Shown piece by piece: positions 1-49,988 of a DNA stretch of 64,000 nucleotides. A program made the translations under genes and the position numbers. Numbering within the stretch: the stretch's first letter is position 1; each line of letters starts with the position of its first letter. Below the pieces are notes generated by a model that saw only the letters and a program-made list of their open reading frames with translations, had not been told where the DNA came from and did no database searches. The stretch lies in contig CM119372.1 in NCBI GenBank assembly GCA_051294905.1, forward strand, positions 10,232,001 through 10,296,000, written 5' to 3'. The DNA is from Botryllus schlosseri. Lineage: Eukaryota.

Positions 1-917
1 CGCAATGCGATTTCTCTCGCCCAGTCGGCCAGACGTTTAGTGTGTGTGTGACCTTCGTCAGGTCACGCAGCAATATCTCCGGAGTACATTTCAATGGAAA
101 GTGTAGATGAAATAATTTATTTGATATAAGAACTTGGAGATTATTAGTCGATATTATATTTGGAATTCTGTCATCAGTGCCATTGTTTTCATGAGAAGTT
201 ATGGGACTAGCGTCTATGCGCGGAACAGGTTTCCTCGACTTAGAGCCGAGGCGTTCGAAACAAATTTTACACCTGATTGTTGACTGTATGAAGTTTATCA
301 GAACGCGTTATCTCGAATCTATCAGAAGGCACGCGTGAAGTTGTATTAGTTGTAGTGAGAAAGTCGGGTATTAACGCTATCGACATAATGCCGACATTAG
401 CTGATAAGAAACCTGCCTTACTCCTTTGTTCGCAATTGTTTAACTTTACTAATTCAAAGTCTGCACGGTGTGAACAAACTACTGCCTGCGACATTGCGAT
501 AAGCGATTCACTCACAGGATTAAATGAAAGTATCTTTTATGAACCTGACACTAGCAAATATCCTGCTGGGAACTTTGAAGTTCGTATAAGTGGAGATGCA
601 TATTCGTGTTTTATTCGTGGATATCCTCTGTAATACCACAGCAAATGAATCGTTGCACATTGCTCGATTTTATAACAGTGCTCTATACTTTGTCAGTAAC
701 CCTGTGTAAAAGCACATGCAGTATATGTATACGCGATACTGCGCCATTTTGTATTTCGTGTCGATATCGAAACTGTAATTCGACGGGAGATGCAATGGAC
801 TTTTTCGCGACGCCTGATCATTTTTTCAGCATCCGCTATCGTTCGCATGACCACATAACCATACCAAATTTATCGGTTCTCTAGAAAATCTGTTACTGAG
901 AAGTAGCCATCAGAAAT

Positions 918-1153
918 ATGTATATGGAAGATGAAGACGCAACGCAGTCACAGCCGCCGGCTCCCCCGATCTCTTCGCATCTCGGATATTCAAGACAAAT
1001 GTACATGTATCACAATCAAGAACGCGTGGGATTAGATCAAAGTATGTATTTGCAGCGCGCGGGAGGCGGGAGTATCGGCTCGCCAACATCCCCGGGAAGT
1101 AATAATAATGTGGGAGATAGTAACGAATGTGCGAATTCCAATCCCGCAAACAG
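918..1153 (+). CDS. GATA coding exon 1
   Basis: ATG at 918; [17 protein letters not shown]...NPANR; donor AG|GTGAGT (phase 2). Confidence 0.8.
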
Positions 1154-4100
1154 GTGAGTTATTGATGTTTTTATAATCATTGTGTTTCGGCATTCAGGGT
1201 CATTATATATCAGGTCGATATTTGCTATTGTGGTTCTTGAGTGTCTTACCTATAGCACAACCCACTTTCGTTAGCCAACTGTAAGATACCGCTTATGCGG
1301 ATCGGATGACCCTGAGAAGATGAGTTAAATTATTCTTCAAATATTTTATATTTACCGAGCAAGTTAGCGTATAATATAAATTAAAAATTTGTACGGACTG
1401 CACTTCAGCACAATATGGTCATGGACGCTTTGCTGGTTAAAACAATTGCTAAATCAAAATTGATGTTTAAAAAATCGCTAACCATGCATTACTAATACAA
1501 CCATATTTTTGAACGTAATTACATAAATGATTACCAAGAAAAGACATTGGATATTTCTGCCGGACTATTGTTGCGTCCGTATGGGCATTGTAACGAATGT
1601 AAGCTAGAACTCAGCCATTTTATCTTGCATCGTATTCAGGGTGTCACAAGGCATACCTTCGCAGTACAACCCTGCCTCGCTGGAAGCGAAAATACCTTAC
1701 GACTTGTACCGTGGATCGAGTCGTTACTCCAAAGAGTCTTCCCTAGCTGACCCCTCACAAACCTTTGCGTCGAGAGGAACAGAGAAAAAATCCGGAAGTC
1801 CGGATTCGGGAGTTGAGGTGGACCGGGCCGCAGACATCGCTGGTCATATTCCTACCGGAGCGATATCAAGCATTGCTGTCAGCGGTGAGAATAGATCATT
1901 TTTTGATCCATCAAATGAAATGCTTCGGTCGGTATGAGTAATATGTAACTTTAATACTAATTATAAGTATGGTGTCCGAGAGTATTTACTTGTCAATCAA
2001 AATATCCAGATCCCAGAAACTGTATAGGCATTATTAATATTATTATATTATTTCACGCAAGATAGAGTAATTCTTAATCGGTAGGTTGCGGTTTCGATAC
2101 CCGGGCGGGTCAGACCAAAGACATGATTAGTAACACTGGTACCCATGACTTCCCCGCTTGGACCTCAGCATTACCGGGATAGCATGGATGGGTGGTGGTG
2201 GTGTAAGACTTAGAAAGCCTTACACGGTTATTTCTGCACCATCCTCGTCCAGCGACATATGCACATCATACACTCATGGTATGCACTGCACATGCACAGA
2301 TCGTGTGTATGTCAAGTCATGAGTCGGTGTATATGCCGCAAAAACACCAAGGACAACAATCAATAAACAGCGTCCTATTCAATCCTGTTATATTATAAGT
2401 TGATATTCAGTAATCCACATACGTAAGGAAATCGGCAGTCAAATAATATCAACTCAAAAGCAAGGGTATGATTCAGGAGATTTGAGTATTTTTATTTTAT
2501 TATTCTCATCGCAATAATTAACAATATGTGATTGGTTTGTGATGCAGCATCGGCTAACCAACAATGATGTTAAATGTACCATGACTAGTTGCTATACATG
2601 AGATGCATATTTTCAGTAAATACGTATCTAGATACGTACTCAATAAAATAATCTGACTGAATCCAGCGATGTGATATCGTAAGTATTACGTTAGTATTAC
2701 AAAATGAAATGTGCCCTAAATGAAGGGACAAGTCTATAGCCATGGCTCATTTCAGTAAATGCAATCTGATGACACGATTGCTTGGTTGGAATTTATTATT
2801 GAATCGGGACCTACGATCGTATCGATTGAACCCAAATGCGTAGGCTTCCATACGAAGCAATATAATGTTTATAATCGGTCCATGTCTTCAGTGTATGCAT
2901 TTATTTTGTAGGAGGGGTATGCGACTATGCGTTACCGTGATATACTAGTATCACACGATATCAACTCCCATTACTAGAAGTCATCCCGGGTGAAAGTAAT
3001 AAATGTACATTGCGGATTATGAAATCACAACGATGGAATGTAATACAAGATTTCGCGTTGTGAATCCGTCATTGTTGGCCTGTCCGGTGAATGATGCTAC
3101 TTGTTCACTTGCAGCGAATTTAATAGATCGCATAAAAGCGTCATATTCCCCTGGAATCTAAATCGATGGCTGATATCCAGTCGAATCAGATACGACGAAT
3201 GATGTAGTTCAATATTTGCCGCTAAGTAATCACACAACGCGCACATGGGCCTTGCTTTGTCCTGACTTGTTTCATTATCTGCCAACAGCTAATCAGGTTG
3301 CAACGGAGCAAAGACCGTCGTCGTATGAGGTCAATACTGTGAGCTGTTCCAGCGCCGGTCCGTATCAGGCATCCCGCTATTCTCCGATGGCGAGTGAGAA
3401 CGCGACATCTGCGAACATTTCCGATGATACTAGCTATTCTTATAATGCCGAACTGGTTAGAAGGGAAAGCAGTATTCGATCATCACACACTCAACTGGCG
3501 TCGTTGTCTCGAGATAGCGCCTACCCCGGATTTTACAGTGCCGGATACCCGGTTACTTCCCCCGTTCCAGGACAAGCAGCTAGTCATCCTCATTTCAACC
3601 CTTACCCATTGCCGATAACAGCCTACTCCAGCTCTCAAACGGCTGTGGCTAACGGAATTATTCCGGGTGCCGAGCATCCGGATATGTCGAGTCTGTCCCA
3701 CCCGGGAACGTATTCTGGATCATCGGAAGGATGGAACGGCCACCCCGGCGGCTACGGGGCTCTCGATTATTCCAGATTTGCGATGTCCATCCCGGCATCG
3801 ATTCCATACGGATATCCAGGTATGTATTTTTCGTTTACACGCTAACCAAAACGGAAATTAGTTTGATTGCAAGATACACTGTTGGTTATGGGAGATGACG
3901 ACTGGCGTATTGTTACCTTCCACGCCTACAACACCAATGGTCGTGCATTAATATAAAATGTTCAAGCAATAATGCTGATAATGCCCACTGAATTTTTATG
4001 ATACATCGATATGCATACTGATCAGCAAATGCTACATATTTTGAGGCCTAACGATAGGGCCAGCATTCAATACGCTTATACTCAGTCAGCATATTTATTT

Positions 4101-7100
4101 GTAGCTATTGTTGTTGTGGTCGTCGTCGTCGTTTAAACAAAACGATTTGGCACTTATCGCCGGCGTTTTGCACCACGATCAATGACATTACACACGTATG
4201 AAATAATGGCAAATATCAGAATGAAGTTGAAACACTCAGGTCATAGTTTGAGGTCAATTGACTTACATTGTACCGCGCGAAATATTTGAATTAATATATG
4301 GGGTTAGTGAGAATCATATTCGATTAGGATTTTTCGTGGTAATGCCATTAGCGTTTGCGATAGATTACAAGTAATCAACCTCTCAAAAGTAGTCGTTTGC
4401 TCACTTGTGACCATCAACGAATCATTGGTAACGATAAGTATTGAGGGAATATTTCCGTGATAAATCAAGTGACTGGTTGCATTTAATGTATGTCGTTAGT
4501 TCACTGATTTAAAACCTTTTTGGTCTAAGTGGACTCATTCGGCCGATACTCTAGCCGACGCACTCCCCCCGAAGAACTAAAAGGTTATATCGCCCACATG
4601 CGCTGGCTCAATGCTGGGGCTATAAAATAGATCTATCCTGCGCACGTGGCTCCGTATAACCAAATGGTGAAATTCTTCCCAGCTTGGGAACCCATGTGTT
4701 TGCCATTCAGATACTAACTATTGAATGGTTTGCAATTATTCTTGCCTACTGTCATTTTATATTTAGCAAAGGAGGGGCCGTAGAGTAGTTGACAAGTTCT
4801 TCACCTACGTTACATCTATTTACAAACGTCCACAAATTTAAGTCACCGCAGAACAAAATATAAGCTAATTCCAACAACAAAGATCGAGGCAACTTGATGG
4901 CGCTCGTATAAATCATAATTAGAGAGGTAGCAGAGCAAATAAAGAGTACTCTTTCCACGCCCCGAACACCTTTTGGTGCAATCTATTACCGAAAGCTAAC
5001 ATGGAGAGGCTCTTGCTGTAAATTACTATGTCAGCCATCACTGTATGCTCTGACTAATCTATAACTCCTTCGCACAACAAGCTTTAGACAACCGAACTAC
5101 ATGTTTATATCCCATTTCAGAGTACATGTTTCCAGATATAGGCTATTGCTTGACTGTTTCAAGCGTAACATTTCAACCATAGGTAGCATCCTATCTTCGA
5201 GAATAGCGATTATATTGTTACGATATCTATTTTGCATAAAACTCAACATCCAGCATAGGCAATAGATCGGATGCTCGACAACTATTACCATTATCAAACA
5301 ATGAATGCAGACTTTTTCAATGTGTGAAATCCATTTGGGCTCTTTACTGTTGTGTTTCAAAGTGAGGCAATGGCGCAATGCTATGGCAGGCTTTGCAACG
5401 TAACTCATATTGCATAAAGCTATGCGGTGAATGTTGAATGTGTTGTGTACCCTATGTATACAGGTTCATGTTCACTGTTCAGCCACACGGATTTCTCAAC
5501 CTAGGTTGCAATTACGAGGATGTTATAATAGATTGCGTGAAACGTAGTGGAAAAGACGTTGTCGGCAGCACAGCTGTTTCCTTTGCTATGTCCGATCCAA
5601 TTAGGGGAGTGTTGCTATGCTTCCGGCAATGAAAAATAGCATACGAGTCTTTGCTTCCGAAGTCCTGACTGTAATCCTGCGTTATCCCGTAGGAATGTAT
5701 CAAACTTCGACTAAACCTGCTAATGGAGGTGCAAAGCGGACCTGTTGTAATACTACTGTTTCTTCACTCCTCTCTTGCTTCCTGCTTAGTCAAAATACTC
5801 GTTCGCGTAATTGTTTGCGGTCTTTGACAACTGAGTGATTTATACGGAGAACATATCAGATACACCATTACCAATTCTTGTCTTGACGGGCCTGTCAAAT
5901 GTTCTGCCGAAGGATAAATACACCACCACACACAAATCGTGTTTAGAATATGTGTTAACGTTTGTAAAATGGCTAATTTGCTTCGAAACGTGTAAAAGTT
6001 CTCGTCACTCGAAACGCGTGATAGCGTAAATACCGACAAATTGAAGTGGGAGAGTCAGTGCGTTAAGCGCGTACGACGTTCGTGCTGACTGTTCATACCG
6101 CTCAGGTCAAAATGGCGACCAAACAGCGAAAGGTTGCAGTCAGTATACGCGTTTGAACTTGATTCGGTGAAAATCTATTTTGACTGTTGAAGTAGGCCTG
6201 CGCGTAGATAGGGCTGGGCACAATGATTCGAGTATTAATTGTAATGATTCGAGTCGAATAGTAAAAGAAGATTTTTTTCGAGTACTGAAATTATGCGCTC
6301 CTCGCAACTGATTGGCCGTGTCGCAGCATACGAGACATAGTATAAAGGTACGTTACTGGAAATACCACATTTCCGAATTCATGATCATCTCACAACATAG
6401 TCAAAAAGTCCAATGAAATCGGTATGGTCGAAAAAATACCGAAGTATCTTTAATGTGACGGATTGACGGATAACAGGCGTTATGTTCTTTGTGGTGCTAT
6501 AAAAGGTACATATTTGAACTTTGACATAGTACACTATTTTGGGACGTCATAATGAGTGATACTCGACTCCACGACTCGACCCGAATCGTAATACGTGATT
6601 CAGAATCGAATAACTCAGGTACTCGATTTTGCCCAGACCTATGCGTAGACACTCTGGAGTAATCAAGCCCGGTGTATAACAACTCAATAATGTCGACGAA
6701 TTAAGCCATAGCAGCCGTTAGGTCGATGGATGGACATTGAGGATTGATTTACTGTTGTCAAACAAAAATGCATTATTGGTGATGATGATTTGTCTACTCT
6801 AGATTTCTTTTCAACCCTTATCCACAACTATGTCGTGTCAAATTGCGACAAGGGGCCCGGTAACGAAATACTTCTACTGTTTTCGGAGTACTCAAAAAGG
6901 ATTTGCTTACTTGCACTAGGCTACTTACTCACGTGGTTAAGACTAATTTTACTTCTGCTCAGTACTTTGCAGTTTTTAGGCAAAACTAGGCCCAGAATAC
7001 TCAACTTGATTTACTTGGTCGCTTCTTTTACTTATACTTGAGTAGAAATTTACGACATTACTTCTACTTCTACTTGAGTGCCGAGGATGGCGACTATGGC

Positions 7101-9872
7101 CACCTTTGCATGGCGACATCTCAAAACTACTTGCTTTATCTACGTGAACCTGCTATGCATTTTGTTCGAGGCGATTTGCGCCCAAGTTATGGATTGTCAT
7201 TGCGTTATTTCGCGGTTGATAATTGTAGTTCAATTTCAGACGGACGACACTGTTGCGCACTTTGCGGGTCATCTGTCGCTGTGTGCTATCTCCGCACGGA
7301 CGGCATGGGGCGATACTGCTGCACCAATTGCGTGTATCCCGGATCAGGGCAGATGCGGATGCCGCAAAAATCGCGAGGAAAACTGGTACGTGTATAAAAA
7401 TCACTTCGTCCACATTGTCGCGAGACTTAAATGGATTTTGTGTTTGCTCTCAGAATAATAGCCGGAGCGGTCAAATATGCAGCAATTGCAGAACTGGAGT
7501 AACAACACTCTGGCGGCGAAGTCCCGATGGCAGTCCTGTATGTAACGCGTGCGGTCTATACCAGAAGCTGCATGGGGTAAGTTTGCTGGGATTGACGACA
7601 AGCCTGTTTTCAAGAACATGACATATAATCAACTTACGGCACTTCTAGGAGTGGCGTGAAGGTAGAAAGTTGGATTATGGAACTGTATATATTTAGTTAC
7701 TTGGTGATCATACTGTGGGATTTCTAGGGCCATTTTGATATGACTTTATGTGAAAATCGTATATTTTTACATGCGAACAACGTCACTCACTGAACTAAAG
7801 AGTAAAACATCCGCAACATAACAGTAAAACGCATGCATTTTTATTTTAAACCACTGTTGTAGTTTCATGTAGTGTGGAATAATAGAGTCTTTGAAGTTGT
7901 GATTTGGACGTAAAATGACTTCAGTAAGGAAAATGAGCGCTCCATAGACGCTGACGTGGGTTGACATTTCTGCAATTTTGCATAAAGCGCTTGTGAAATG
8001 TCTTGTCTTTGTAGCTCCATAATTTGTTTCACGTTGTTTTTGTCCAATCACTTATTAATGCAATTTTTGAGCTCAAGCGGATCTTTTCCGAAGTCAAGGG
8101 CATTTAGATCAGCATGGACCTCTTTGATGGTGTACGACCAACTTTCCATTTTGAGTATCAAGTTTGAAATATTTTTACAGTCGAGGCATATTTCTGTTAA
8201 CTGACTAGTCAACATTGGATCGTTGATTGAATTTTTGACGCTCTTTACAACAACTCCTTCACCTTCCTATGCATTGATTATTTCTTTCACTTGTGGAAGT
8301 CTCTCGACATAATATTCAGCAGTATACAACCAGCGATACCCCTACGAATAACTGCCTTAGTTTCTTAGTGCTTAACTCACCGCTTAAATTGGTACTTTTA
8401 ATTTAAAGTATACAATGATGTGACTTTATAACTCAAAAATATGACTATATAACTTTAAAAGCTGATTTATGACCTAACCAGCCAACCATGACTTTATACG
8501 ACTTCATAACTTTCTTAATACACCTCATATGGATGCTGTTTTTGCGTTAAAATTGATATCAGAACTAACTTACTGATGCATAGTAAAAAATATGACTTTA
8601 ATGACTTTAAATGGCCCTAATGATTTCTGTTTTGTGCCTCATACCGTTGATCATTTTCGTTTATCGTTTTGTTAATACGTTCATCACAGACAGATACTAT
8701 AACAGTATTGTGAATGATTAAATCTTTCATTAACTTATAACATTTTAGTTAACACGCAACTTCTTATACGTCCGTGACAGAATTCTTGTACTCATGTCAT
8801 TTATTGCTCCGAATAATTTAACATTTCGATTTGTATTACTCCTGATTTTATCGTTGAAATGACGCAGTTGCTCACTACAAACCTTGCACGCGGTGATCAG
8901 ACCGTTCGCGGTGACAAGCGCCACTTCTTTTTTATAATCTATAATAATAATACTGAACAAATCCATTCAAAATGAATTTTGAAATTTCAGGTCCCGCGGC
9001 CCCAATCCATGAAAAAAGACAGCATACAGACAAGAAAGCGAAAGCCCAAAGGTCAAGGAAAAGGTAAAAAGACGCAACGACGCCAAGCGTTATCAAGCGC
9101 ACATCATCCTGACGGATATAGCAATGTGGCGCAGTCATCCAGTTCCGCATCTTCACCCTCTTCCAAGCAAACTAATCGCAGCAAGGGCGGCAGTGTATCC
9201 GGCAATTCTCCGAAAGCAAATTTCTTCGCGACTACCGACACCAATCACAATATTATGACGTATCAATCCGGTGAAGGTATTGACGACATGACGGAACACT
9301 CTGCAATTTCATCGCCAGAAACAGAACGCATAATAGGCGACATGTCAAACTCGTCCCCGCACAGCGAGCAATCTGCTTGCGCTGTAGATGCCCCAGGTCC
9401 GATCCAACCAATCGAGCCTTCGTCACTCGGCAGTTCGTCTCGCCAAGATAGTTTTAGCCCAACTGCCAGGACCAGCGAGGCTAACATCTACAACGGTACT
9501 ATTCCAAATGAACCTTACCAAACCGGATACCACGCGCATACTTACAGCGACAGCGTAACGCCACGTCCTAATATCGATATGAACTCCTCACCGATGTACG
9601 GACAATATCCGCTGGTCTGTCAGCAACAACAGCCCATGGACAGCTCGAATACAAATATGCAGATTCCATCCGAAACTAACTTTTTTTCTGCTGCGACATT
9701 TAGCGAAAGACCCAGATCGGTCGCGGAAAATTATCGCGCGGTGATATCGGGCGGGTATGCGAGTAGTAACGTCGCTGCGCTCGCACCAACTAGTTTGTAT
9801 CGTGATATGCAGCAACATCAATCTTACGCCAGCGCTCATTATCCAAAGAAAGGGTCGTCTGCGCGGTGTTGA
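918..9872 (+). CDS. GATA4/5/6: GATA4/5/6-class zinc-finger transcription factor, 6 coding exons, ~733 aa
   Basis: GT-AG, phase-consistent exons 918-1153, 1640-1931, 3297-3819, 7240-7385, 7454-7576 and 8991-9872 total 2202 nt in frame. The C-finger [33 protein letters not shown] splices to [28 protein letters not shown] and QTRKRKPK are GATA4/5/6-type, whereas GATA1/2/3 have VNRPL and QTRNRK. The N- and C-terminal regions are Ser/Pro/Tyr-rich. An acceptor AG at 883-884 implies an upstream non-coding exon or trans-splicing. Confidence 0.92.
1640..1931 (+). CDS. GATA coding exon 2
   Basis: Acceptor ttcag|G completes an AGG codon; [11 protein letters not shown]...EMLRS; donor GTATGA (phase 0). 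Confidence 0.75.
2075..2190 (+). mobile_element. Probable tRNA-derived SINE fragment (third family)
   Basis: B-box-like ggtttcgataccc followed by gggtcagaccaaagac...ccccgcttggacctcagca, resembling widespread aquatic-animal SINE bodies from memory. Single copy in this window. Confidence 0.45.
3297..3819 (+). CDS. GATA coding exon 3 (Ser/Pro/Tyr-rich, activation-domain-like)
   Basis: Acceptor aatcag|GTT (alternative acceptor at 3288); donor CCAG|GTATGT in phase 1, the intron phase expected before the GATA N-finger exon. Confidence 0.8.
6209..6641. mobile_element. hAT-type MITE in GATA intron 3
   Basis: TIR TAGGGCTGGGCA...TGCCCAGACCTA; 8-bp TSD cgcgtaga/tgcgtaga; inverted partial copy at 53148-53466. 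Confidence 0.85.
7240..7385 (+). CDS. GATA exon 4: divergent N-terminal zinc finger
   Basis: Acceptor tttcag|[51 protein letters not shown]; donor GTACGT. Phases 1 to 0 match the canonical N-finger exon (EGREC...KRRL). Confidence 0.85.
7454..7576 (+). CDS. GATA exon 5: C-terminal GATA zinc finger
   Basis: [41 protein letters not shown] (C-X2-C-X17-C-X2-C); ctcag acceptor and GTAAGT donor. Confidence 0.97.
7725..8619 (-). mobile_element. Internally deleted hAT transposon with decayed transposase C-terminus (GATA intron 5)
   Basis: TIR TAGGGCCATTT...AAATGGCCCTA; TSD gggatttc/atgatttc; subterminal atgacttta repeats. Minus-strand peptide [19 protein letters not shown] matches the hAT C-terminal dimerisation motif; in-frame stops lie upstream. 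Confidence 0.85.
8991..9872 (+). CDS. GATA exon 6: basic region and C-terminal tail
   Basis: Acceptor tttcag|[23 protein letters not shown]...; TGA at 9870-9872. Confidence 0.93.
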   Translation, partial: VPRPQSMKKDSIQTRKRKPKGQGKGKKTQRRQALSSAHHPDGYSNVAQSSSSASSPSSKQTNRSKGGSVSGNSPKANFFATTDTNHNIMTYQSGEGIDDMTEHSAISSPETERIIGDMSNSSPHSEQSACAVDAPGPIQPIEPSSLGSSSRQDSFSPTARTSEANIYNGTIPNEPYQTGYHAHTYSDSVTPRPNIDMNSSPMYGQYPLVCQQQQPMDSSNTNMQIPSETNFFSAATFSERPRSVAENYRAVISGGYASSNVAALAPTSLYRDMQQHQSYASAHYPKKGSSARC

Positions 9873-10955
9873 TGAAATCGAGTCTATCTGTTGGGTTATG
9901 TCGGGCCAATGACTAAACATAACATATTTGCGATAAGTGGATCCCTAATATCGTTCGGTTTTGCCAGTTTTTCATTCTTTTTCAATGCAGCTCGATGATT
10001 CGTATATGTACATGTTTAGTTGGAATATCAACATATCTCCCTAATTCTCTGATGATGTACGACTAGCTCATCTAATTCATAGTTCGTTATTTTAGTTCGC
10101 AACCACATGTTCCCCACTGTCGTATACTCTATAAGTTAATGTTCCACGGGTATAATTCGTCAAAATTCGTAGGTTTCGCTGGACCGTTACAATGTCACAT
10201 AATTTCGTTTATTGCAAATTGGTGGGTGTTTGGAACATACATATATCTCTTATGTTGGTAAACAATTGGGAGAAGTGGACGACGGATTTCCACGAGTATT
10301 ATAAATCTTCGAAACGCTGAATGCTAAGGGAATTCAGCCATTTTTTCTGTGCTCGATCGCCAAGATATAAACTTACCACCATATCTCATTCGAAAAGTTG
10401 ATTGTCTCCGAATCTCTTGCCAGTTATGTCACAATATCTAATAGATTTATATGACATGATATTTTCGGATATTTTCGGCAAGTTGTGTGTAGCTCAGTCG
10501 GACTGCGCTCGGTCAAGATTATATCGACCTCTCGGCCTGTAGTCACCAATTTTTGTTTGACATTTTCACATTATGCCACGACTCCCCAAAAGCACACACA
10601 CAAATACACGTCGTAAAGTTAACCTATTTCGAAACCTATAATGAAATTAATAGAGAATCGTCTAACTCTAAAGCCATATGGACTTGCAGTGTCGTGTTTG
10701 AGTGACAGAAGCATTTTTCGGGATCTTTATTATATAAAGGCTTACTTTTCTTCTCCTTTCTGTTTGTTACCTGCATCTGTTTGAAATAATGTTAGCAATC
10801 ATAGACGCATTTTCAAATTTCAAGCTTAGACTATCGTAATGTTTTGAGTGTCGTCTTATCCCTTAAACTTTACTTGTCCTTACGCTGTTACATCTCGTTA
10901 TGAGTTTTGATTTCTACAAGACTATGGTGTGACCCTTTTGATGTAAATATTATTT

Positions 10956-10961
10956 AATAAA
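10956..10961 (+). terminator. Candidate GATA polyadenylation signal (AATAAA)
   Basis: AATAAA ~1.1 kb after the stop, followed by GT-rich sequence (ggtttaggtacgtttcagtggtggcgttt). Confidence 0.5.
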
Positions 10962-13506
10962 TGCCTGGTTTAGGTACGTTTCAGTGGTGGCGTTTGCCTG
11001 AATGTGGAGTACTTAGACTTTGGAGGATCTGTGCAGTGATTATGGTGTAGGTTTGCTATTGTATGGAAGGATTTGAGTGTATAATGGATAAATAGTGTGA
11101 AGTGCAGCTTATAGACGGGAACAGGAACCCCCAATAAAGCACGACACAGTGTGGTGGTATGGCGTATTTTGAGAAGATAATCATAGAGCTGTATAGATCT
11201 TTCGTTGGATAAACTGAATTAACCATATATGGGAAGGCTCGTCTTGAAAGCTAGAAGTTGGCAACCTTTTTGCTTTGGGGACCGGTTTTCGAAACGACTG
11301 AGGCGGTCTTAAAAATAATGGTCAACAACAAAAAATAATATTTCAGCTCATGGACTACAATAGGCTCACTAATGCGGGTGCCCAGTAAGGTAGTAACACG
11401 CATGTGCTCGATTAAAATGATTAACTTGATTTGTATAAATTTTCATTGGTGATCTTGACCACTATCGTTGTAAACCTTCAGCTAACTTCCAAAAGTTTAT
11501 GAACTTACCAAGACCTTTCAAAAACACCAATTTCATTGACCAAATTCAACTAAACAACAATAGTTCGCTCATCACCGATAACAATAACATGAAAAAGAGG
11601 GGGTTTAATTTATCACTATATGGGGGTGGGTGGGGGGGGGGTGGCTGACGAAGTGTTGTTACGGACATGGTTATCATACGCACAATGCATGTTCTAGAAT
11701 CTAGATGCAGGCTATAGCTTAAAGTCCTTGCGATTACGACGTTTCATTTCGAAACGTGACGTATGTACAGTATTTTCAAATAGATAACTCGATAATAATT
11801 ACTTCTGGCTGCACTCCCAAACAATCTACCCGTGATCATCGCCGTTCTGAGTTACGCTTGTAATAGAGTTCGAGTTGTGACTTGTCCCCACTATACTGTG
11901 TACTTGAACGCAGCTTTGTGTAATGTGAGGGAGCGTGTTTGCTGAATTCGCATATCGGAGCGTCCGAGTACCATTCGGCAACATTCCTGACCTTTGTAAC
12001 AGATCATACGGGTATGATATATATCGATGGAGGCGGCGAGTTATGTAGTGGGCTACGCAATGCCCATTGTCCATTGTTGTTAAGTACGAAGTGTAATGGA
12101 AATACGCATGTCAAAATACTGCTAATGATACCAACGTATGTGGCATCCTCAATAACAAATCACTCAGCATCATAACACTGGCCTCCGCCACAGTAGACTT
12201 GAATGAATGAGCTGCACGTACATTTGACATTTTGACATTATGTATTAAATATATTTATCGCGAAAGCTTGTACCATCAACTGTGAGAAATTCTCGTGGAT
12301 GTGTTGGGTACTCTTATACACTCATTTACAAGATATAGTCATGTCCAATTTATTGTGACGATTGTATTATTGCGATGTTTTTTTCTCGAGCCCACGTTTA
12401 TTCTGGATACCAAAATGATTAAATATACTTAGTGATAGATATTAAAATTACACTACTTCATACAGGTATTCTTTGTTTTGGTGAGTGTGCGCTTGCTTGT
12501 AGAGGATATGACAATATCGAGATGGGGTTGCGTAAAGGTCGCTAATAGTCTCTCTGGGAGTCTTACCTCATTCTTATTTAGCAAGTGTTGCGTCATGCGA
12601 TTGAGCGGGATTTAATATTAATCTATGGACCCAATTTTTTCGATATTAGCGTCAATATTAATAAGTTTCCGTTCGCGAGAAAGCCTTCGACATGAGTAAG
12701 AATGGGAGCTACGCATTTGCTCACCAAGGTAAGTTAAGTCATCATATCGCGGTTGAATTTGTGTAGATAGTGACATCATACTCGAGACATGTGTTCCGTT
12801 TCCCACACAACCTGTTTATTGGGAATATTTTACTGGCAACGTGCTGCGACACGACACTTCCGCACTCAATCCCTCCTTGTTCCAGCTACAAGTAATTATT
12901 TACCGAACCAATAATTATGTCTAATATCAGGTCGTTTGTCCACAACGTATCACGATCAAGGGGCTTCGCTATTGTGGTCACTGTGACCCTACCTTATGTT
13001 TAACTGATACAACAATGTAGCGTGTCAAAATCCGTCATACTTCTACAATTTATTGTTTTCGGCCTGTTTGCCGTATCTTGGATTCTGTTGGTGTTACGTT
13101 TTACAATGACGATCGCCAAGATAGTGATCGCATTCCCAATGTTTATTTTCCTACTAACTGAGATAAGGACAACGCGTCCTTGCACGAATCATTGTGCAGA
13201 ATGCGAAATCGGACGCATTATATTAGGTGCATTTTGCATCATTCTCACGTAACAAATGGGCATTATCCCGTCCAAAACAACTCGTTGACGACATAGTTGT
13301 CTCCTTACGAAAACAACATTGCTGGGGACCAACGTATGGTCTTTACTCATCACCAAAGACAACCTAATTAATGTCTTTCGAATTGGGAATTTTTTAAACT
13401 TTGAAACGGAGCATTAAAAAGAATACTGAGAAGATCGTTAATGATCAATTATGTTTGTGGTATTGATGGTGTTTGTCAACTATACTATGGTCATTCACAC
13501 CAGGCC

Positions 13507-25718: not shown

Positions 25719-28700
25719 CTGGAAAAATGAACGGCAACGCAGTCAAATTATTGTAATTGATATAAAAAAGAAATCGGAGGTTTTAGATTGATAGAATTGT
25801 TTCGGCCCCTTGCTATCTTTTCATTCTATTTCAATTCTGTGCTATTTTGAATTGGCGAAAATGGCAATCAATGATGGATTGATCGAATGATTACCGTAAC
25901 AGGAGAATCAGAAAGAAACCATGGCCATTGCAAGTATGTGTGCAAAAGCAATTAAAATGATATGGGGTGGAATTAACTTTTTGAGCTCTAGTCTAATACC
26001 GACGCAAGTCGAACATGAAATGACAATGGTTTAAGGTCTCGCCTAATACCAACCAAGGTCGAATATGACAATCAACACCTGCAATCCATCAAGATAGTTC
26101 TACTGGATGTTGAAATCATACTGAACGAGGAATACGATACTCACTCAAAATGGAACAACTGTGAGTATATATAGATATAGATAAAGGGTGGAGTCAAAAA
26201 AAGAAAAATTTGAATTTAAAAAAGTGCCTTTGATATTTGGTCCCAAATCTCGAATGAATTACTTCTATCATACTTTCAGGTTCTTGCACCCTCTAGTGGC
26301 CGTGCAATTTCACCGAACGAGCCGAAAATAGCTAATTTTGCCACATCTTCCTACTCGCTTATGCTAGAAAGCTAGTTTTGGGCTCAAAAGCTGCGGAAGC
26401 AACATGTTTCTATTTCACTTCCATAGAACTTTGTCTTGAAAATGTACAGAGAAAAGTTACAAGCGAATTATTGATTTTTAGGCCTCCAATAAAATGTCTG
26501 TTGGTTTTACCAAGTGTGCAATGCCAATTTGCATGTTACAATTTATTACATTGCTGCTTTAACAACAAAATATTGATTGGAGGACCTACGAGTTCATTTA
26601 TAGATCAACCCAGCATAATTTTGATTAGTAGAGAGAATGATTGAATCACGAACTTTCATCATATTACATCATCACAAACCTTTATGATATGAACTTGGTT
26701 AAAAGGGTATCTTCCTGTTCAACTCTACAAAAAACGATAGGCCTAGCGTAGATTGTTCAAAAAGTGAATCAGTTACAGTAAATCAGCTATATAATTTCTA
26801 TATACCTAATACCTGTATGTTTTGTTGAAAATGACGATTTTCATATCATTTGAGACATTGGTAAACTGTTTTATATATTATACATATTATACAAGCTGTT
26901 GTACTCATCTTTGGAATATTCTGGAACTTTGATAGTCAACCACAAGTCTCCCAGTAGGAGTGATGATAATTCATTTTGAAAGTGTTCTGGTTTCTGGTGT
27001 ACCTTGGAGTTGATCATATAATACTCTGGTATAATGGTGTTAAAACTGACTCCTCCATGTGTAGTATCATAGGCCGCTGGCTGTATTAACAGGTCGTTGT
27101 AATATACTCTGCCATGTGTGTGAATTGAACTGACATTGTCTAGAATATGTACAGATTCAGAATTTCATCATGTTCGACTTATAGCAGATTGTGGTTTATC
27201 ATATGTACAAGTATTTGACATACTGTTAACAGGAAAAAGATCCCAAGTCTGTCGGTGCTTGCAATAAGTTGAGCGGTGGATAAACTTTTCAAAGTGTTGA
27301 TGGTCTTCCTTCCGGAATACTCCCAGCTAAGAGACAGTTGTTTGATCACAACTAAAGTGATCAAAGTTGAGCATACCCTCAATCTCTTGTCTTTTAGTTG
27401 GGAGTACCGGTATTCCAAAAGGAAAACCATCAACACTTTGAAAAGTTTATCCACTGTGCAACTTATTGCAAGCAACAACGGACTTGAATCTTTTTCTTGT
27501 TAACATTATGTCAATTACTTGTACTATGATAAACCACAATCTGCTATAAGTCCAACATGATGAAATTCCGAATCCCTACTTATACTAGACAATATCAGTT
27601 CAATTCATACACATAGCAGAGTATAATACAGCGACCTATTCATACAGCCAGCGGCCTATGACACTGCACATGGAGAAGTCAGTTTTGAAACCAATACACC
27701 AGAGTATTATATGATCATTTTCAACTCCAATATACACCAGAAACCAGAACACTTTAAAAATGAGTTATCATCGCTCCTACTGGGAGACTTAAGGTTGACT
27801 ATCAAAGTTCCAGAATATTCCAAGGATGAGTACAGCAGCTTGTACAATATGCATAATATATAAAACAGTTTACCAATGTCTCAATTGATATGAAAATCGT
27901 CATTTTCAACAAATCATACAGGTATTAGGTATAAATAAATTATATATCTGATTTACTGTAACTGATTCACTTTTTGAACAATCTAGGCCCATTGTTTGTT
28001 GTAGAGTTGAACAGGAAGATACCCGTTTCACCAAGTTCATGACAAAGGTTTGTGATGATGCAATATGATGAAAGTTCAATCATTCTCTTTTCCTCATCAA
28101 AATTATGCTAGGTTGATATATAAATCACCCCGTAGGTCCGCCAAACAAGATTTCGTTGCTAAGCCTACAATGTAACAAATTGTAACATGCAAATTGGCAT
28201 TGCAAAATTGGTAAAACCAACCGACATTTTAATGGCGGCCAAGAAATCAGTGATTTGCTTTTAACTTTTTTTCTGTACATTTTCAAGAGAAAGTTCTATG
28301 GTAGTGAGATAGAAACATGATGCTTCCGCAGCTTTTAAGCCCAAAACTAGCTCTCTAGCATAAGCGTATATCAAGATATGGCAAAATTAGCTGTTTTCGG
28401 ATCGTTCGGTGAAATTGCACGGCCACTAGAGGGTGCAGGAACATGAAATTATGATAAGAAGTAATTCATTCGAGATTTGGGACCAAATATCAAAGGCATT
28501 TTTCGAAATTCAAATTTTTCTCTTTTTCAGTCCACCCTAAGATATGGAGAAGATATCTTTGATTATGAATTACAATACTAGTGTATGTGTGTGGTGGATC
28601 GCATAAATAACCATTGAATTTGAATAAGAAGAAAGAAACCTTTTTCTTGTATGCAGCCAGATTTCGATTGCAGAGTTTGTGAACTTTCCCGGTTACTTTT

Positions 28701-42094: not shown

Positions 42095-45020
42095 GGTTGG
42101 TTCGATTGGTTTGAAATAAGGACAAATATGTTAGAAATGAGGCGAGTCTCATGTCAGAAATGAGGATAGTCATGTCAGAAATGAGGATAGTCATGTCAGA
42201 AATAAGGATAGTCGCTATATTCACTATAAAGTCAGTTACAGTACCAGGCACGACTTTCTAGTGCTGCTAACCCAGTCCGAACACATCCCAGACATGATGT
42301 CCAAACACGCCCCAGACACGATGTCCGGGTATCAACACAGGCCGAACACGCCCAAGACACCATGTCCGAATGGCAACACAGGCCGAAAACACCCCAGACA
42401 TGATGTCTGAACACGCCCCAGATACGATGTCCGGGTATCAACACGGGCCGAACACGCCAAAAAGACACCATGTCCGAATGGCAACACGGACCGAACACGC
42501 CCCAGACACGATGTCCGAGTGTCAACTCAGATCCGAAAACAACCCAGACACCATGCTCGAATGGCCGAACATGCCCCAGACACGATGTCCGATTGGCAGC
42601 ACAGGCCGAACACACCACAGACATGATGTCCAAACACGCCCCAGATACGATGTCCGGGTATCAACACAGGCCGAACACGCCCTAGACATCATGTGTGAAT
42701 GGCAGTACAGGCCGAACACCCCCCCCCCAGACATGATGTCCGAACACGCCCCAGATACGTTGTCCGGGTATCAACACGGCCGAACACACCCAAGACACCA
42801 TGTCCGAATGGCAGCACAGGCCGAACACACCCCAGACATAATGTGTGAATGGCATCATAGGCCGACCACATCCCAGACATGATGTCCAAAGTCGCCGCAG
42901 ACACAATGTCCGAACACAGCCGAGACACCATGTTTGAATGGCAGTACAGGCCGAACACCCCCCCCCCCAAGACATGATGTCCGAACACGCCCCAGATACG
43001 TTGTCCGGGTATCAACACGGCCGAACACACCCAAGACACCATGTCCGAATGGCAGCACAGGCCGAACACACCCCAGACATAATGTGTGAATGGCATCATA
43101 GGCCGACCACATCCCAGACATGATGTCCAAAGTCGCCGCAGACACAATGTCCGAACACAGCCGAGACACCATGTTTGAATGGCAGTACAGGCCGAACACC
43201 CCCCCCCCCCAAGACATGATGTCCGAACACGCCCCAGATACGTTGTCCGGGTATCAACACGGCCGAACACACCCAAGACACCATGTCCGATTGGCAGCAC
43301 AGGCCGAACACACCCCAGACATAATGTGTGAATGGCATCATAGGCCGACCACATCCCAGACATGATGTCCAAAGTCGCCGCAGACACAATGTCCGAACAC
43401 AGCCGAGACACCATGTTTGAATGGCAGTACAGGCCGAACACCCCCCCCCCCCCAGACATGATGTCCGAACACGCCCCAGATACGTTGTCCGGGTATCAAC
43501 ACGGCCGAACACACCCAAGACACCATGTCCGAATGGCAGCACATGCCGAACACACCCCAGACATAATGTGTGAATGGCATTAGGCCGACCACATCCCAGA
43601 CATGATGTCCGAAGTCGCCGCAGACACAATGTCCGAACACAGCCGAGACACCATGTTTGAATGGCCGAACATGCCCCAGACACGATGTCCGATTGGCAGC
43701 ACAGGCCGAACACACCCCAGACATGATGTCCAAACACGCTCCAGATACGATGATCGGGTATCAACACAGGCCGAACACGCCCAAGACACCATGTCCGAAT
43801 GGCAACACAGGCCGATAACACCCCAGACATGATGTCCGAATACGCCCCAGATACGAAGTCCGGGTATCAACACGGGCCGAACACGCCCAAGACACCATGT
43901 CCGAATGGCAACACAGGCCGAACACACCCCAGACACGATGTCCAAGTGTCAACTCAGATCCGAAAACAACCCAGACACCATGCTTGAATGGCCGAGCATG
44001 CCCCAGACACGATGTCCGATTGGCAGCACAGGCCGAACACAACCCATACATGGTGTCGGAACGCCCCAGACACGATGTGCTATTGGCAACACAGTCCCAA
44101 CGCCCCCCAGACACGATGTTAATAAGGTTTGTCGTGTTTGAAATAAGGTCAGTCTAGTGTTTGAAATAAGGATAGTCATGTTAGGAATAAGGATAGCCAT
44201 GTTTGATATAGGGATAGTCATGTTTGAAATAAGGATAGTCTCATGTCAGAAATGAGGATAGTCATGTCAGAAATGAGGATAGTCATGTCAGAAATAAGGA
44301 TAGTCTCTATATTCACTATAAAGTCAGTTACAGTACCAGGCACGACTTTCTAGTGCTAACCCAGTCCGAACACATCCCACACATGATGTCCGAACACGCG
44401 CCAGATACGATGTCCGGGTATCAACACGGCCGAACACACCCAAGACACCATGTCCGAATGGCAGCACAGGCCGAACACACCCCAGACATAATGTGTGAAT
44501 GGCATTAGGCCGACCACATCCCAGACATGATGTCCGAAGTCGCCGCAGACACAATGTCCGAACACAGCCGAGACACCATGTTTGAATGGCCGAACATGCC
44601 CCAGACACGATGTCCGATTGGCAGCACAGGCCGAACACACCCCAGACATGATGTCCAAACACGCTCCAGATACGATGATCGGGTATCAACACAGGCCGAA
44701 CACGCCCAAGACACCATGTCCGAATGGCAACACAGGCCGATAACACCCCAGACATGATGTCCGAATACGCCCCAGATACGATGTCCGGGTATCAATACAG
44801 GCCGAACACGCCCGAGACACCATGTCCGAATGGCATCACAGGCCGAACACACCCCAGACATGATGTCCAAGCACGCCCCAGACACGATGTCCAAGTATCA
44901 ATACAGGCCGAACACACCCAAGACACCATGTCCGAATGGCAACACGGACCGAACACGCCCCAGACACGATGTCCGAGTATCAACACAGGCCGAATACGCT
45001 TAAGACACGATGTCCGAATG
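42095..45020 (+). repeat. Left arm: complex minisatellite
   Basis: 21-bp units catgtcagaaatgaggatagt, then GC-rich degenerate units (gaacacgccccagacatgatgtcc / gaatggcagcacaggcc). A ~242-bp higher-order period is marked by poly-C tracts near 42720, 42960, 43200 and 43441. The module restarts at ~44125. Confidence 0.95.
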
Positions 45021-46215
45021 AATAATTGACCAGGATAATGGAATTTTATCGAGCGATCATTCGGAACAATGCCGATTTCCAGATTTCAGACTTGGACGGC
45101 TATATTTATTGGTGGTTCCGTTGACCTGCCAGCTTTAAAATTGTATTTGCGAAATAGCTTTCGATCAAGATCGGTATTGGTAAATTGTAGTTTCATTCAA
45201 AGTTAATTTATGAGTTCGGCCGATACTAATGTCCCTTGCATTTATTGCGGGTCGCCTGTGTTTGCCGCTGGGTTTATTTGACAAGGACAGGAATATTTGG
45301 GGCTCACACATATAAATATCGAAGACTCCTGGTTACACGTCTATAATTTCAAATGCCGATGCGAAGTTGGATGTTGGACGCACTGGCGTAGCCAGGGGGG
45401 ACGAAAGGGGCAATTTTTCACATCAGTATAACAGCTTTCGTTGAAATTCTTTTAATTTCAACTTCGGGCCACTCTGTGCATGCCGCTGACAGCATAAATA
45501 AATCAACACTCACTAAACGAGCAGGCACCTTGCCGATCGCAAAAAATACTTACTTTGTTAGGCCTACAAAAGTTTGCTCGAAATATCAAGCTTTCCGTTT
45601 GTGAATATTTTGTGACTCTCTGCTGTGAGCTTGGCCCGCAATCACACAACATTACGAGCGAAATACGCTATCATGTAAGTAGTGAGCGAATGCGATGTTT
45701 ATTCAACCAATCAATAAGATATAAAAAGAATACATCTTTGTCTAATGTAAAAAATCCAGCAGGCGTACGGGATCCCTCTTGATTCTATATGTTTATTATA
45801 TTATAAAAATCAAATCCGTGCGATCGGGGTTATTGTTATGTTGGCTATTGTATAACTTGTTAATGGGGTAATATATAAACCCGTTTAAAACTGTTCAATA
45901 TCAATGTAGCAATAGTCAGACGCCGAATACATTGTCCGGTCTGGCATAGACCGTTAAGGCGGAAGCTTATATTCCCAAACAAGTTCTCGTCGAAATCTTT
46001 GGCAAAGCGACACAAGATCTTGATTTTATGGGATTATTATATCATTTAATTTAATTGCTTTGCTTGATGACACATTTAGTAACGTTCAAATAATCAGCAT
46101 GTAGGCCTACGTCAGCATTGTGGCATATGTGACCTGAGTCGTCGCCATGTATCGTGTACGACGTACGTACATTAATATATCAATTCACCGAAATGCAGAG
46201 TTGCAATTGGCAATA

Positions 46216-46392
46216 TGACGTCACTTGACGGCATAGTTTCACTTTCGCGTTCACACAGAACATTTCAAAAAGGTTCAAGTTCACACGAACCTGAACCTTT
46301 TAGAGATTCATCCCATCCCTAGTACGTGGGGAATCCGATTTCTAGTTCCTTGGCGATTTTGAGGGTTTTCTGGTGCCCTGGCTCTTATAAAA
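46216..46392. promoter_or_regulatory. CRE/ATF + ISRE/IRF-E + kappaB-like motif cluster
   Basis: TGACGTCA at 46216-46223, TGACG half-site at 46226-46230, AGTTTCACTTTC (reverse complement GAAAGTGAAACT) at 46235-46246, GGGGAATCC at 46328-46336, TATAAAA at 46386-46392. Confidence 0.55.
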
Positions 46393-47989
46393 TATAATAC
46401 AAATACATGTGTGTTGAATGGCACTGTTTTAGTGCTATAGGTCTATATACCCGATGGCATCAATGTTCTCTAGCTTCTTCGGTATATTCCAGTGATTCTC
46501 AACCTTTTTTCCACCGCCGTCTCCTCTCAGACATTCATGGTTGCCGCTTCCATATTTAAGCATTGTACTAAAGACGATGCGGTAAAGGTCGAAGTATGGT
46601 CGCTCATGCCGGGTTTTGACTTGACCTAATTGGAATTATTTCGCTCATGAATCGCGCCCAATGACCACTCAACTATTTATCGAACTAATAATTGTATGTA
46701 CTATTTTCGGGATAAAATCAAGGTTGATATTCCGAGCGCAGGGTAGGGGCCATACCTATCAGATCGAACCCAATGTATAGTCTATATAGCGGCTAGGATA
46801 TAGCTTAGGTTCTACCCGACAGGTAAAGCCCAGGGGCTCTCAGCCTATTCTTGGTCGTAGGCCTTTTCCGGTTTGAAAATGTGTTGTGGCCCACCTCTTA
46901 TCTTAGAGTTATAATCCTGTTGATTGCGTGGTAATCGACAGCGCCGATATGCATATTTCTCTAAAATATGCGCATATTTCTTTACTGATGAGTGATGATA
47001 TTAAAATCTAGGCATAATGGGGCATGAAATCGCGCGAAGCGTGACAGAATTTTCCAAGTTGAATAAATATCCACTAACAAACGACCAACAAAATAATATT
47101 GGACCCCTTCGAGCTCCCAATTGGGGGTTTCGGTGTGGCAGTTACAGCCCTCGTAGATCATAGGCTAGAAGTCCTGAATATTATTCTGATCGCCCGCTGC
47201 TCCATTCGCATCGCGAAACACGATGATCAGATCCCGGCATCCACTGTGTAATTGGGACTTTAGTTCCACTGTTGTGTGGAATAATGATCATTCTGGACCA
47301 GCTTCGAACAATACATTGGTGAATGGGGTACTATACAGCAAAGTATCTGCGATTTCAGCTTTAATCCAATGATAAAATCAATTCATACGACTCTTACACA
47401 AATATCAGTGCATGGTCGCGGTGCTGTATCATTTCTGACTCAAAAGGTCCCCGTAATGTAGAGAAACCTGAATCGTGATTTATTAATACAAATAAAATAC
47501 AACAAATTCAAAAGTCCGCGTTTACAGTTGAATCTCTGGAATTCATCAATCCTCACAACGCATACATACGGTTAACGATATATTACGACTCAAGTAAATG
47601 GAGCATAGAAATAAGTGAACTTGTATCGTCGTTACCGCGACTGTTTTAGCAGCGGTTCATAAGTGCATTGAACCAACCAATCATCATCGTCAATTTCATT
47701 GTTCGCGATCAAAGTGTTGCTCTACTTATTCTTGCTAGCTTGGTAACAATATGTTCAAGTGAAAAGCAAAGCCGGTGGCCCGCGAGCATTTCGAATGTTT
47801 GAATCCGGCCCGCGACGTAATTTTGAGTTTGACAGCCCTGGTTTACAACGCAGGATATTTGTGGCCAGATAGTTATTGTTTTTAGTTGCTTGCTGATGCT
47901 GTATAGTAAAGCGATGCAGTGAAGGAATATGAAATTGCTATAGTTGTTGAAATTTACGGACGGGTGATCAGAATAGAACCCCGAGGAAG

Positions 47990-48360: not shown

Positions 48361-48438
48361 ATGGAGCTGAATTTGATGAAATACTTCAAATGGAAGCGTT
48401 GAACGCACTCGCATGGTGTCGACTCCTACAGACTACAC

Positions 48439-49776: not shown

Positions 49777-49988
49777 GACTACACAAATATTTGCATGACA
49801 ACGCATGATCTTGAGATTTCTCCTAGCTAGCATTCATGAATATTCTTGTTTGCAATACATTTGATTACATTCCAAAACATACTTGTGCTTTATTGCTTGC
49901 GACACGTCAAAATGAGGTAAAATGTGCATTATGGCTGTATTAAGTAAGTTCAACCTTATAAATTTGCGACACGAGATAGCGAAGTTAT

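Follow-up and report, generated by a model that had tools for sequence, protein, structure and literature searches.

Probable erosion of the N-terminal zinc finger in an expressed GATA-a gene of Botryllus schlosseri

We consider it probable that the 64 kb stretch of Botryllus schlosseri DNA analyzed here (the window, 64,000 nt) carries an expressed, correctly spliced GATA-a gene, a version of the heart-and-gut regulator GATA4/5/6, whose first zinc finger has decayed by relaxed constraint and which binds DNA via its second finger. Judged from the sequence, the N-finger was likely eroded rather than rebuilt or repurposed.

Results

The GATA-a model encodes 720 amino acids, with a coding length of 2,163 nt including the N-finger exon, and all of its features lie on the forward strand. 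Coding starts with an ATG at 918, in an exon (918..1153) defined by an open frame and a GTGAGT donor; its low-complexity product is alignable to the N-termini of GATA-a orthologues, and the putative joint to the second coding exon (1153/1640) is absent from the listed contig pieces. Contigs from two runs (X1 record 2 and X2 record 9) connect the second coding exon (1640..1884) with 3289. The third (3289..3819), which is Ser/Pro/Tyr-rich and ends in phase 1, is supported by a contig and an open frame. It is followed by the degenerate N-finger exon (7240..7385; 146 nt, phase 1 to phase 0) and by the exon of the canonical C-terminal GATA finger (7454..7576; C-X2-C-X17-C-X2-C). The last coding exon (8991..9872), supported by a contig joint and an open frame, encodes a basic tail and the C-terminal region; its joint to the C-finger exon (7576/8991) is GT..AG and occurs in two runs, and in a contig the transcript extends past the coding end to at least 10599. 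The N-finger exon is flanked by TTTCAG on its 5' side and GTACGT on its 3' side, its entry codon is split with exon 3289..3819 (G|AC, Asp), and its peptide has 49 residues counting the junction Asp. The three-exon layout known from the finger region of GATA genes (PMC2383905, PMC2857956), with first finger, second finger and lysine-rich exon in the GATA456 class, is present at 7240-7385, 7454-7576 and 8991 onward.

The two junctions that the first-pass annotation had named for checking, 3819-7240 and 7385-7454, are both present in contig 9 of run X2 (2,524 nt), whose pieces are, in unbroken record order, 1774-1883, 3288-3816, 7237-7384, 7453-7575 and 8990-10599. These give joints at 3819/7240 and 7385/7454, allowing for one to three ambiguous letters per joint, and they confirm the exon at the N-finger position and phase; within it the contig has no mismatching letter. 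The contig is termed transcript-like, as the RNA origin of run X2 is presumed by the tool, and the splice support for the finger exon is this one contig from one of four runs. Two raw-read runs, X17 and X21, have almost no depth on the exons and are therefore uninformative on the inclusion level. Use of 7240..7385 in the transcript, as the N-finger exon of a GATA4/5/6-class gene, is supported.

We regard it as most improbable that this is a skipped pseudo-exon, or that another exon supplies a normal N-finger. Such arrangements have precedent in amphioxus and fly GATA456 genes, where alternative exons replace the N-finger (PMC2857956, PMC8844375), and X1 contig 6, whose start coincides with that of the C-finger exon, implies that at least two different sequences precede this exon in run X1; a retained intron is a likely cause, given the intronic contigs in that run. 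Intron 3 also has two in-frame exon candidates that passed a crude filter, neither of them finger-like. Against this, the exon is spliced in X2 contig 9, and its simple skipping gives Glu and then a stop, leaving a 338-aa product without fingers. Moreover, an HMM built from the N-finger exons of the eight other tunicate GATA-a genes, window excluded, found no canonical N-finger elsewhere, either in intron 3, where the first-pass annotation had allowed for one, or anywhere else among the 2,219 six-frame segments of the window: the finger exon scored E 1.5e-7, the C-finger exon E 2e-9 and the next segment E 0.11. With this HMM the exon reached 31.4 bits, against 12.1 for the best shuffle (2,000 shuffles, 1,996 scored). 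Finally, a Botryllus GATAa contig in PMC4893630 (supplement 1) has a predicted-protein length of 2163, equal to the model's 2,163 nt, a match of length only.

The C-finger matches Pfam GATA above the cut-off (E 1e-15) and is 85-94% identical to tunicate GATA-a fingers (query coverage 56-85%), its matches including the named GATAa of Ciona and Phallusia and GATA-type proteins of Styela and Clavelina. The whole model matches the tunicate orthologue P0021 at E 3e-90 and that of Styela at E 4e-59. In a tree of eight rows, all GATA-a-like (P0012, P0023 and P0028 were omitted as partial or duplicate), P0021 is the sister of the window protein with support of 100/99, at an overall identity of only 38%. 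The tree has no GATA1/2/3 outgroup, and the class therefore rests on identity to named GATAa proteins, by which the gene is an ascidian GATA-a (GATA4/5/6 class).

The position table places the N-finger core, C-X2-C-X18-C-X2-C, at 7254..7331. Its ligand-position Cys codons start at 7254, 7263, 7320 and 7329, and extra Cys codons start at 7251, 7284 and 7317; the X18 rather than X17 spacing, the four ligand-position cysteines and the three extra ones were thus all read correctly in the first-pass annotation. Counted back from the third Cys, the equivalents of GATA1 R216 (codon at 7293), D218, G221 and Y223 are kept, as is that of G208 after the second Cys. The V205 equivalent is Ala when the second cysteine is taken as ligand; with the first instead, the knuckle becomes C-X3-C and the V205 position Cys, Val being absent both ways. 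The core Trp is replaced by Leu, the loop has no Trp (position 8 included), and Pro-Gly stands two residues past the last Cys, with most of the helix gone. By alignment and model, 7332..7385 encodes the shortened helix, Val-Tyr-Pro-Gly, and a basic linker, R-x3-K-x2-G-K. The recognition motif had been called lost, which holds for V205, W215 and the helix; the R216, D218, G221, Y223 and G208 equivalents are kept, however, and the recognition loop is therefore not wholly lost. Pfam GATA gave no match to the finger exon at E<=10, and the gene would therefore be annotated as single-finger.

The comparison set comprised eight other tunicate orthologues, all from species that are not closely related. 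Seven of the eight have a worn N-finger, and the C-finger is near-constant. Compared with the near-canonical N-finger of P0005, core identity (out of 30) is 21 in Ciona savignyi, 19 in Styela, 18 in Phallusia, 17 in both Clavelina and C. intestinalis, 13 in the window gene, 12 in P0022 and 9 in P0021; C-finger cores retain 26-29/30. Pfam GATA finds six of the nine N-fingers, missing those of the window, P0021 and P0022. The V205 equivalent is altered in 4/9 sequences, and the loop Trp, absent in the window finger, is present in all eight others. The four cysteines are invariant in 9/9 sequences, in an alignment anchored on those cysteines, and so are R39, K43, G46 and K47 of the basic linker. 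The fingers are 26 residues apart in the window protein and in 5/8 of the others. The Ciona GATAa dual-finger domain is unusually divergent, at 56-58% identity, where other deuterostome GATA456 proteins reach 74-90% (PMC2857956, Table 1). The near-canonical finger of the stolidobranch-like P0005 points to independent decay within tunicates.

Against P0021, the window finger shares 3/25 non-ligand residues (from a single MAFFT alignment with the first extra cysteine placed in the ligand column), compared with 29-38% identity in the low-complexity flanks and 47/53 in the C-finger and basic region. It is closer to P0005, with 11/25. P0021 has X17 spacing and no extra cysteines, P0022 has X19 and, like the window finger, a doubled cysteine in the first knuckle, and six of the eight other orthologues lack extra cysteines in the N-finger.

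These counts bear on whether the finger was repurposed, its extra cysteines supplying another metal-binding site or acting as a redox switch, or its new surface binding a lineage-specific partner. We think this unlikely, although the finger holds eight potential metal ligands (seven Cys and one His within 28 residues) in a protein with cysteine at only 5/610 residues outside the finger region, has tolerated two one-residue insertions with its four core cysteines retained, and shares the doubled first-knuckle cysteine with P0022. Ciona Gata.a, moreover, binds Tcf7 and beta-catenin (PMC4859511). In contrast, the sister and most other orthologues lack extra cysteines, no conserved new motif was seen in the N-finger alignment of nine tunicate sequences, and three extra Cys in 45 positions are within chance at a 2-4% background (P 0.06-0.27; P 0.03-0.27 over 1.5-4%). 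About equally unlikely is the broader proposal that, in this colonial-ascidian lineage, the N-finger of a sole GATA4/5/6 factor became a new Cys-rich module that dropped FOG and gained new partners in budding, as the last stage of a rewiring, across tunicates, of a GATA-FOG interface that vertebrates cannot do without; if true, this module would possibly bind two metal ions or be redox-sensitive. The description of the finger as rebuilt or repurposed is thus not borne out by the sister's X17 spacing and lack of extra cysteines, the 3/25 shared residues and the chance-level cysteine count. We would see the X18 spacing and the extra cysteines as lineage-specific by-products and no new design. 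With only eight other orthologues, none of them close, these features may therefore be conserved in a narrow clade.

Structure prediction gave an alignment-based finger model with pLDDT 71 and a helix of only four residues (28-31); GATA fingers came top, weakly, in two fold searches with this model, which was itself guided by GATA sequences. The best Foldseek match was GATA3 (E 0.86) and the VIA match GATA1 (Z 3.3, rmsd 3.9, 40 aligned), neither significant. A single-sequence model (pLDDT 61) had a hairpin only and matched no zinc finger, and a predicted two-copy complex with three zincs scored 0.01, which gives no verdict. Together with the lost core Trp and the lack of a Pfam match, the low-confidence single-sequence model might suit a finger that is unfolded and acts as a mere flexible linker maintaining the reading frame. 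This we hold to be very unlikely, as the four ligand cysteines persist in 9/9 sequences (the alignment being anchored on them) while their neighbors turn over.

Discussion

Under the decay by relaxed constraint that we favor, the four cysteines would continue to bind a single zinc within a treble-clef knuckle. The FOG valine, the core tryptophan and the greater part of the helix are missing, which would end FOG docking and abolish two-finger binding at palindromic sites; GATA sites would be bound by the intact second finger and basic tail alone. With Ala at the V205 position, Leu for the core Trp and Pro-Gly after the last Cys, canonical binding of FOG or GATA DNA appears unlikely, as had been anticipated, and with a canonical C-finger and a degraded N-finger the protein would act, as also proposed, as a single-finger GATA factor. 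The four Cys are kept but most other finger residues have changed, and DNA is therefore likely read by the second finger alone. The finger exon may persist for two reasons: its omission breaks the reading frame, and its knuckle and basic linker may still be useful as a spacer. Rapid change would fit positive selection equally well.

The finger could instead play a partial canonical role, strengthening binding to double or palindromic GATA sites via the retained arginine and basic linker, probably without FOG. The R216, D218, G208 and Y223 equivalents are kept and the finger is nearer P0005, and some canonical function may therefore remain; the G221 equivalent, the R..K..GK linker invariant in 9/9 and the conserved inter-finger distance also favor this. 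We nevertheless consider such a role improbable.

Decay of the first finger has parallels. Nematode ELT-2 likewise combines a degenerate upstream C4 finger with one intact GATA DNA-binding domain (PMC7712238, bioRxiv 10.1101/2022.05.20.492891), keeping the four Cys, the Gly before the third Cys (52/57) and a loop Lys/Arg (55/57) with most DNA-contact residues lost; the survivors in the window finger are the four Cys, the Gly four positions ahead of the third Cys and the equivalent of R216. The ELT-2 loop varies in length across nematodes (X9-20). The state of the ELT-2 finger was read in the same work as relaxed selection, and retention of the worn fingers, there unexplained, was termed a mystery. 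The window finger fits an ELT-2-type C-X2-C-X9-20-C-X2-C pattern of limited conservation (X18, 3/25 against the sister). However, its decay appears to be of independent origin, in chordates, it has three extra cysteines, and the gene keeps the ancestral three-exon layout, with a near-ancestral finger distance of 26 against 36-89 in Caenorhabditis ELT-2. In Drosophila, GATAe has a very divergent first finger and GATAd has none; these two and the SrpC isoform are likewise GATA456-class factors that work without a canonical N-finger (PMC2383905, PMC8844375). They are paralogues or isoforms alongside the two-finger Pannier and SrpNC, whereas Ciona is reported to have just one GATA456 gene (PMC2857956). 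That animal GATA N-fingers are near-invariant, as the first-pass annotation had it, is too strong given ELT-2, GATAe and the seven worn tunicate fingers.

The ascidian orthologues of Ciona (Q4H3F6), Phallusia (A0A6F9DDY9), Styela (XP_039266978) and Clavelina share with the window gene a near-identical C-finger and basic tail, a KxKGK-type linker and a worn N-finger (17-21/30 against P0005). They keep X17 and the loop Trp, and all except Phallusia keep the FOG valine, whereas the window finger has lost all three. Vertebrate GATA1-6 N-fingers (PDB 3vd6, 4hc7, 1y0j) have the same exon slot, phase, Cys pattern and G208, R216, D218, G221 and Y223 equivalents, and rank top in weak sequence and fold searches with the window finger. 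The window finger differs in its X18 spacing, in the V205, W215, N226, L230 and Y231 equivalents and in a Pro that shortens the helix. V205 is required for FOG binding (PMC8844375), and V205G in mouse GATA1 and GATA4 is embryonic lethal (cited in PMC8844375).

Worn first fingers are already known in GATA factors of nematodes and flies, and the kind is not new. The present case comes from the sister group of the vertebrates, animals in which the contact between N-finger and FOG is essential, and the gene is one that Ciona is reported to have in a single copy. Tunicates form a graded series, from the near-canonical P0005 to the unrecognizable fingers of the window gene, P0021 and P0022, with C-finger and exon layout constant. 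The mainly open literature yielded no account of a degenerate GATA-a N-finger in tunicates; the original Ci-GATAa cloning paper may remark on it.

Plant and fungal GATA fingers have an X18 loop and an intact Trp-Arg recognition motif and bind DNA. Kinship to them was rejected, the window finger having neither a loop Trp nor a Trp-Arg motif and no Pfam GATA match. The top PDB sequence match was to ribosomal eL24/TRASH-like fingers (E 0.064), which share the treble-clef pattern; this kinship was dropped because exon slot and orthologue HMM indicate GATA. A search of the finger exon against longer proteins yielded no candidate, one against 1.84 billion representatives yielded two matches, to a cysteine-repeat and an Ig-repeat protein, both rejected, and exon 3297-3818 had no match at E<=1 among 1,185 candidates. 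In the ESM Atlas just small unrelated or unnamed clusters of low recognition value were obtained, to which we give no weight either way, and Rfam found nothing in positions 1-12000 of the window. A metagenome scan returned two loci (L001, L002) with identical match statistics; L001 lies antisense to a bacterial starch-enzyme-like ORF and was rejected. The CxxC patterns at 42-52 kb of the window are chance frames of a minisatellite.

Identification and splicing of the N-finger exon

Six coding exons make up the GATA-a (GATA4/5/6) model: 918-1153, 1640-1884, 3289-3819, 7240-7385, 7454-7576, and 8991-9872. Together they total 2,163 nt and 720 aa. The C-finger, in exon 7454-7576, is canonical (Pfam E 1e-15). 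The N-finger slot is occupied by exon 7240-7385, 146 nt bordered by TTTCAG and GTACGT, which, counting the final base of exon 3289-3819, encodes 49 residues in the pattern C-X2-C-X18-C-X2-C plus three extra cysteines. Pfam GATA does not detect this exon. A profile of the eight other tunicate N-finger exons, with the window's left out, scores it at 31.4 bits, versus a maximum of 12.1 for 2,000 shuffles (1,996 scored); when the window is cut into 2,219 six-frame segments, none scores apart from this exon and the C-finger exon, the next best reaching E 0.11. Because of the profile score and the six-frame comparison, exon 7240-7385 is, at the sequence level, a GATA N-finger homologue. The X18 spacing with extra cysteines proposed in the first-pass annotation is thus borne out, and the canonical N-finger exon elsewhere that it named as a possible refutation does not appear among those segments: since only the finger and C-finger exons score, no normal N-finger is hidden in the window.

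The flanking junctions, for which the annotation had sought RNA, are joined on both sides in a single 2,524-nt contig from sequencing run X2. This contig covers five of the six exons in unbroken order, has 0 differing letters over the finger exon, and has all four joints at GT/AG borders present in the window; it represents one of the four runs compared, and X2 is taken as RNA from a presumed run type assigned by the tool. Junction 1153/1640 is predicted. Exon depth is almost nil in two raw-read runs. In run X1 a long contig starts at the C-finger exon, a branch that is most simply a retained intron. Omission of the finger exon gives Glu and then a stop, yielding a 338-aa protein without fingers, and the idea that the exon is skipped is scarcely credible. 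The coding length equals the 2163 listed for a Botryllus schlosseri GATAa contig (PMC4893630 supplement 1), a match of length, not of sequence, which makes this species a probable source. GATAa is described there as a marker of the budlet inner vesicle (PMC4893630), and Gata4/5/6 has been located in the heart-forming region (PMC6399929). Across 8991-10599, the last exon with the 3' UTR, two runs have contigs that depart from the window sequence at 45-48 letters, with 11-14 gaps; X2 shows 0 differences over the four upstream exons, so polymorphism is unevenly spread.

Residue anatomy and proposed function

In GATA1 numbering, the finger keeps its four cysteines, G208, R216, D218, G221, and Y223; V205 has become Ala, W215 Leu, L214 Tyr, H222 Arg, and N226 Thr, and G229-L230-Y231-H232 reads Val-Tyr-Pro-Gly. 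In GATA1, H222 and Y223 face FOG, and N226 and L230 contact DNA. The recognition motif, called lost in the first-pass annotation, is thus not lost entirely. In a possible alternative register, Trp would become Tyr, with an insertion after the arginine, and R216 would be lost instead. V205, which FOG binding is reported to need (PMC8844375), is altered in four of nine tunicate sequences; the loop Trp is missing in the window finger alone. Disease positions listed for the N-finger include V205, G208, R216, and D218 (PMC13534945).

Three extra cysteines in 45 positions have P 0.03-0.27 at a background of 1.5-4%, although cysteine makes up only 5/610 residues outside the finger. Repurposing as a cysteine-rich module seems unlikely to us. 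Modeling guided by the alignment (pLDDT 71) gives two hairpins plus a helix of 4 residues that stops before the proline; GATA fingers top both fold searches with it, non-significantly (E 0.86; Z 3.3, rmsd 3.9, 40 aligned), and a fold search with the single-sequence model (pLDDT 61) returned no zinc-finger match. The finger may thus take a GATA-like fold, with which the alignment-guided model is compatible. An unfolded linker is very improbable.

We favor as probable a reading in which DNA is bound through the C-finger and basic tail, and the N-finger, its constraint relaxed, is left as a zinc knuckle. On this view the finger would no longer dock FOG or take part in two-finger binding. The exon's sequence, its splicing, the dependence of the frame on it, and its divergence are shown; we infer that the finger binds zinc, that it has lost its hold on FOG and DNA, and that constraint relaxed, as opposed to positive selection having acted. 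Two reasons are proposed for the exon's persistence: skipping it breaks the reading frame, and the knuckle with its basic linker would still act as a spacer.

Comparison with other tunicates

A C-finger search retrieved 24 proteins, nine of them tunicate or tunicate-like GATA-a (Styela, Phallusia, two Ciona, Clavelina, and four others; 85-94% identity); the other 15, fungal or without a name, were left out of the comparisons. A tree was built from 8 rows, with no GATA1/2/3 outgroup and leaving out P0012 and P0023 as partial and P0028 as a duplicate. In it the window gene pairs with orthologue P0021 (100/99), nested in a clade that also includes Styela and P0005 (100/100). This placement makes the source likely a styelid ascidian. 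The P0005 N-finger is near-canonical, matching solved GATA1-4 N-fingers at ~E 1e-17 per domain. Against it, 30-residue N-finger cores score 21 (Ciona savignyi), 19 (Styela), 18 (Phallusia), 17 (Clavelina), 17 (C. intestinalis), 13 (window), 12 (P0022), and 9 (P0021); C-finger cores score 26-29. Pfam recognizes 6/9 N-fingers.

Invariant in all nine are the four cysteines and linker residues R, K, G, and K. This basic linker, R-x3-K-x2-G-K (7356-7382), is constant in 9/9 aligned sequences, whereas the finger is not; possible roles for the linker are in nuclear import or in contacting the DNA backbone. Residual help from the N-finger in DNA binding is a doubtful alternative.

P0021 has 38% overall identity to the window gene, with 47/53 in the C-finger and basic region, 29-38% in low-complexity flanks, and 3/25 non-ligand finger residues. 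P0021 has X17 and 0 extra cysteines, so the window finger's oddities are absent from this nearest sequence found, though at 38% identity overall it is itself a distant comparison. Decay of the window finger is incomplete, since 11/25 non-ligand residues match P0005. P0021 and P0022 (spacing X19) equal the window finger in degree of wear but differ from it in pattern, suggesting that decay arose independently more than once. The N-fingers of P0005, P0010, P0011, P0012, P0015, P0017, P0021, and P0022 form a graded decay series. In Ciona, the FOG face is mostly kept (E203, V205, G208, A209, H222) and DNA-side residues are changed.

Relation to known GATA factors

Of 30 nematode ELT-2 orthologues, 28 carry a C-X2-C-X9-20-C-X2-C finger upstream (PMC7712238). 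Caenorhabditis ELT-2 fingers keep the cysteines, Gly at -4 from the third Cys (52/57), and a loop Lys/Arg (55/57), features that also survive in the window finger; the authors infer relaxed selection and call retention a "mystery" (bioRxiv 2022.05.20.492891). In Drosophila, the first finger of GATAe is highly divergent and GATAd has none (PMC2383905). One amphioxus GATA456 splice form lacks the first finger, and tabulated values show unusual divergence for the dual-finger domain of Ciona GATAa (PMC2857956). For Ciona Gata.a, ChIP peaks show enrichment of the GATA motif, and binding to Tcf7 and beta-catenin is reported (PMC4859511). In the literature covered, with subscription papers and several supplements outside its scope, we found no description of the tunicate GATA-a N-finger as degenerate. 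The window N-finger is real, expressed, and unusually far gone, and the gene is a chordate addition to the already known ELT-2/GATAe-like type, within a tunicate-wide gradient. It should mildly surprise GATA specialists, and with it the question of why worn fingers persist can be tested in a tractable way.

Other features of the window

ORF listing and the finger search gave no further obvious protein-coding gene or GATA paralogue in 10600-64000, small exons being outside their scope; the DNA downstream of GATA-a may be regulatory and poor in genes. A ~10 kb foldback-like element (42095-52269) has 634-nt terminal arms, 99% complementary, and consists of minisatellites with 41-, 65-, and 106-nt units together with a 21-nt repeat; no clear target-site duplication was found around it, and 45030-50586 has no ORF of at least 110 aa among those listed. 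A second foldback or MITE-like element of 2.2 kb (26230-28490) has nested inverted arms 89-94% complementary. Intron 3 holds a small inverted-repeat element (6224-6641) with very many related copies in contigs. The SINE-like repeat in intron 2 (2087-2360) has no match to tRNA or Rfam; RNA reads contain many related copies, at a mean depth of ~860 in run X17, and these extend into poly(A).
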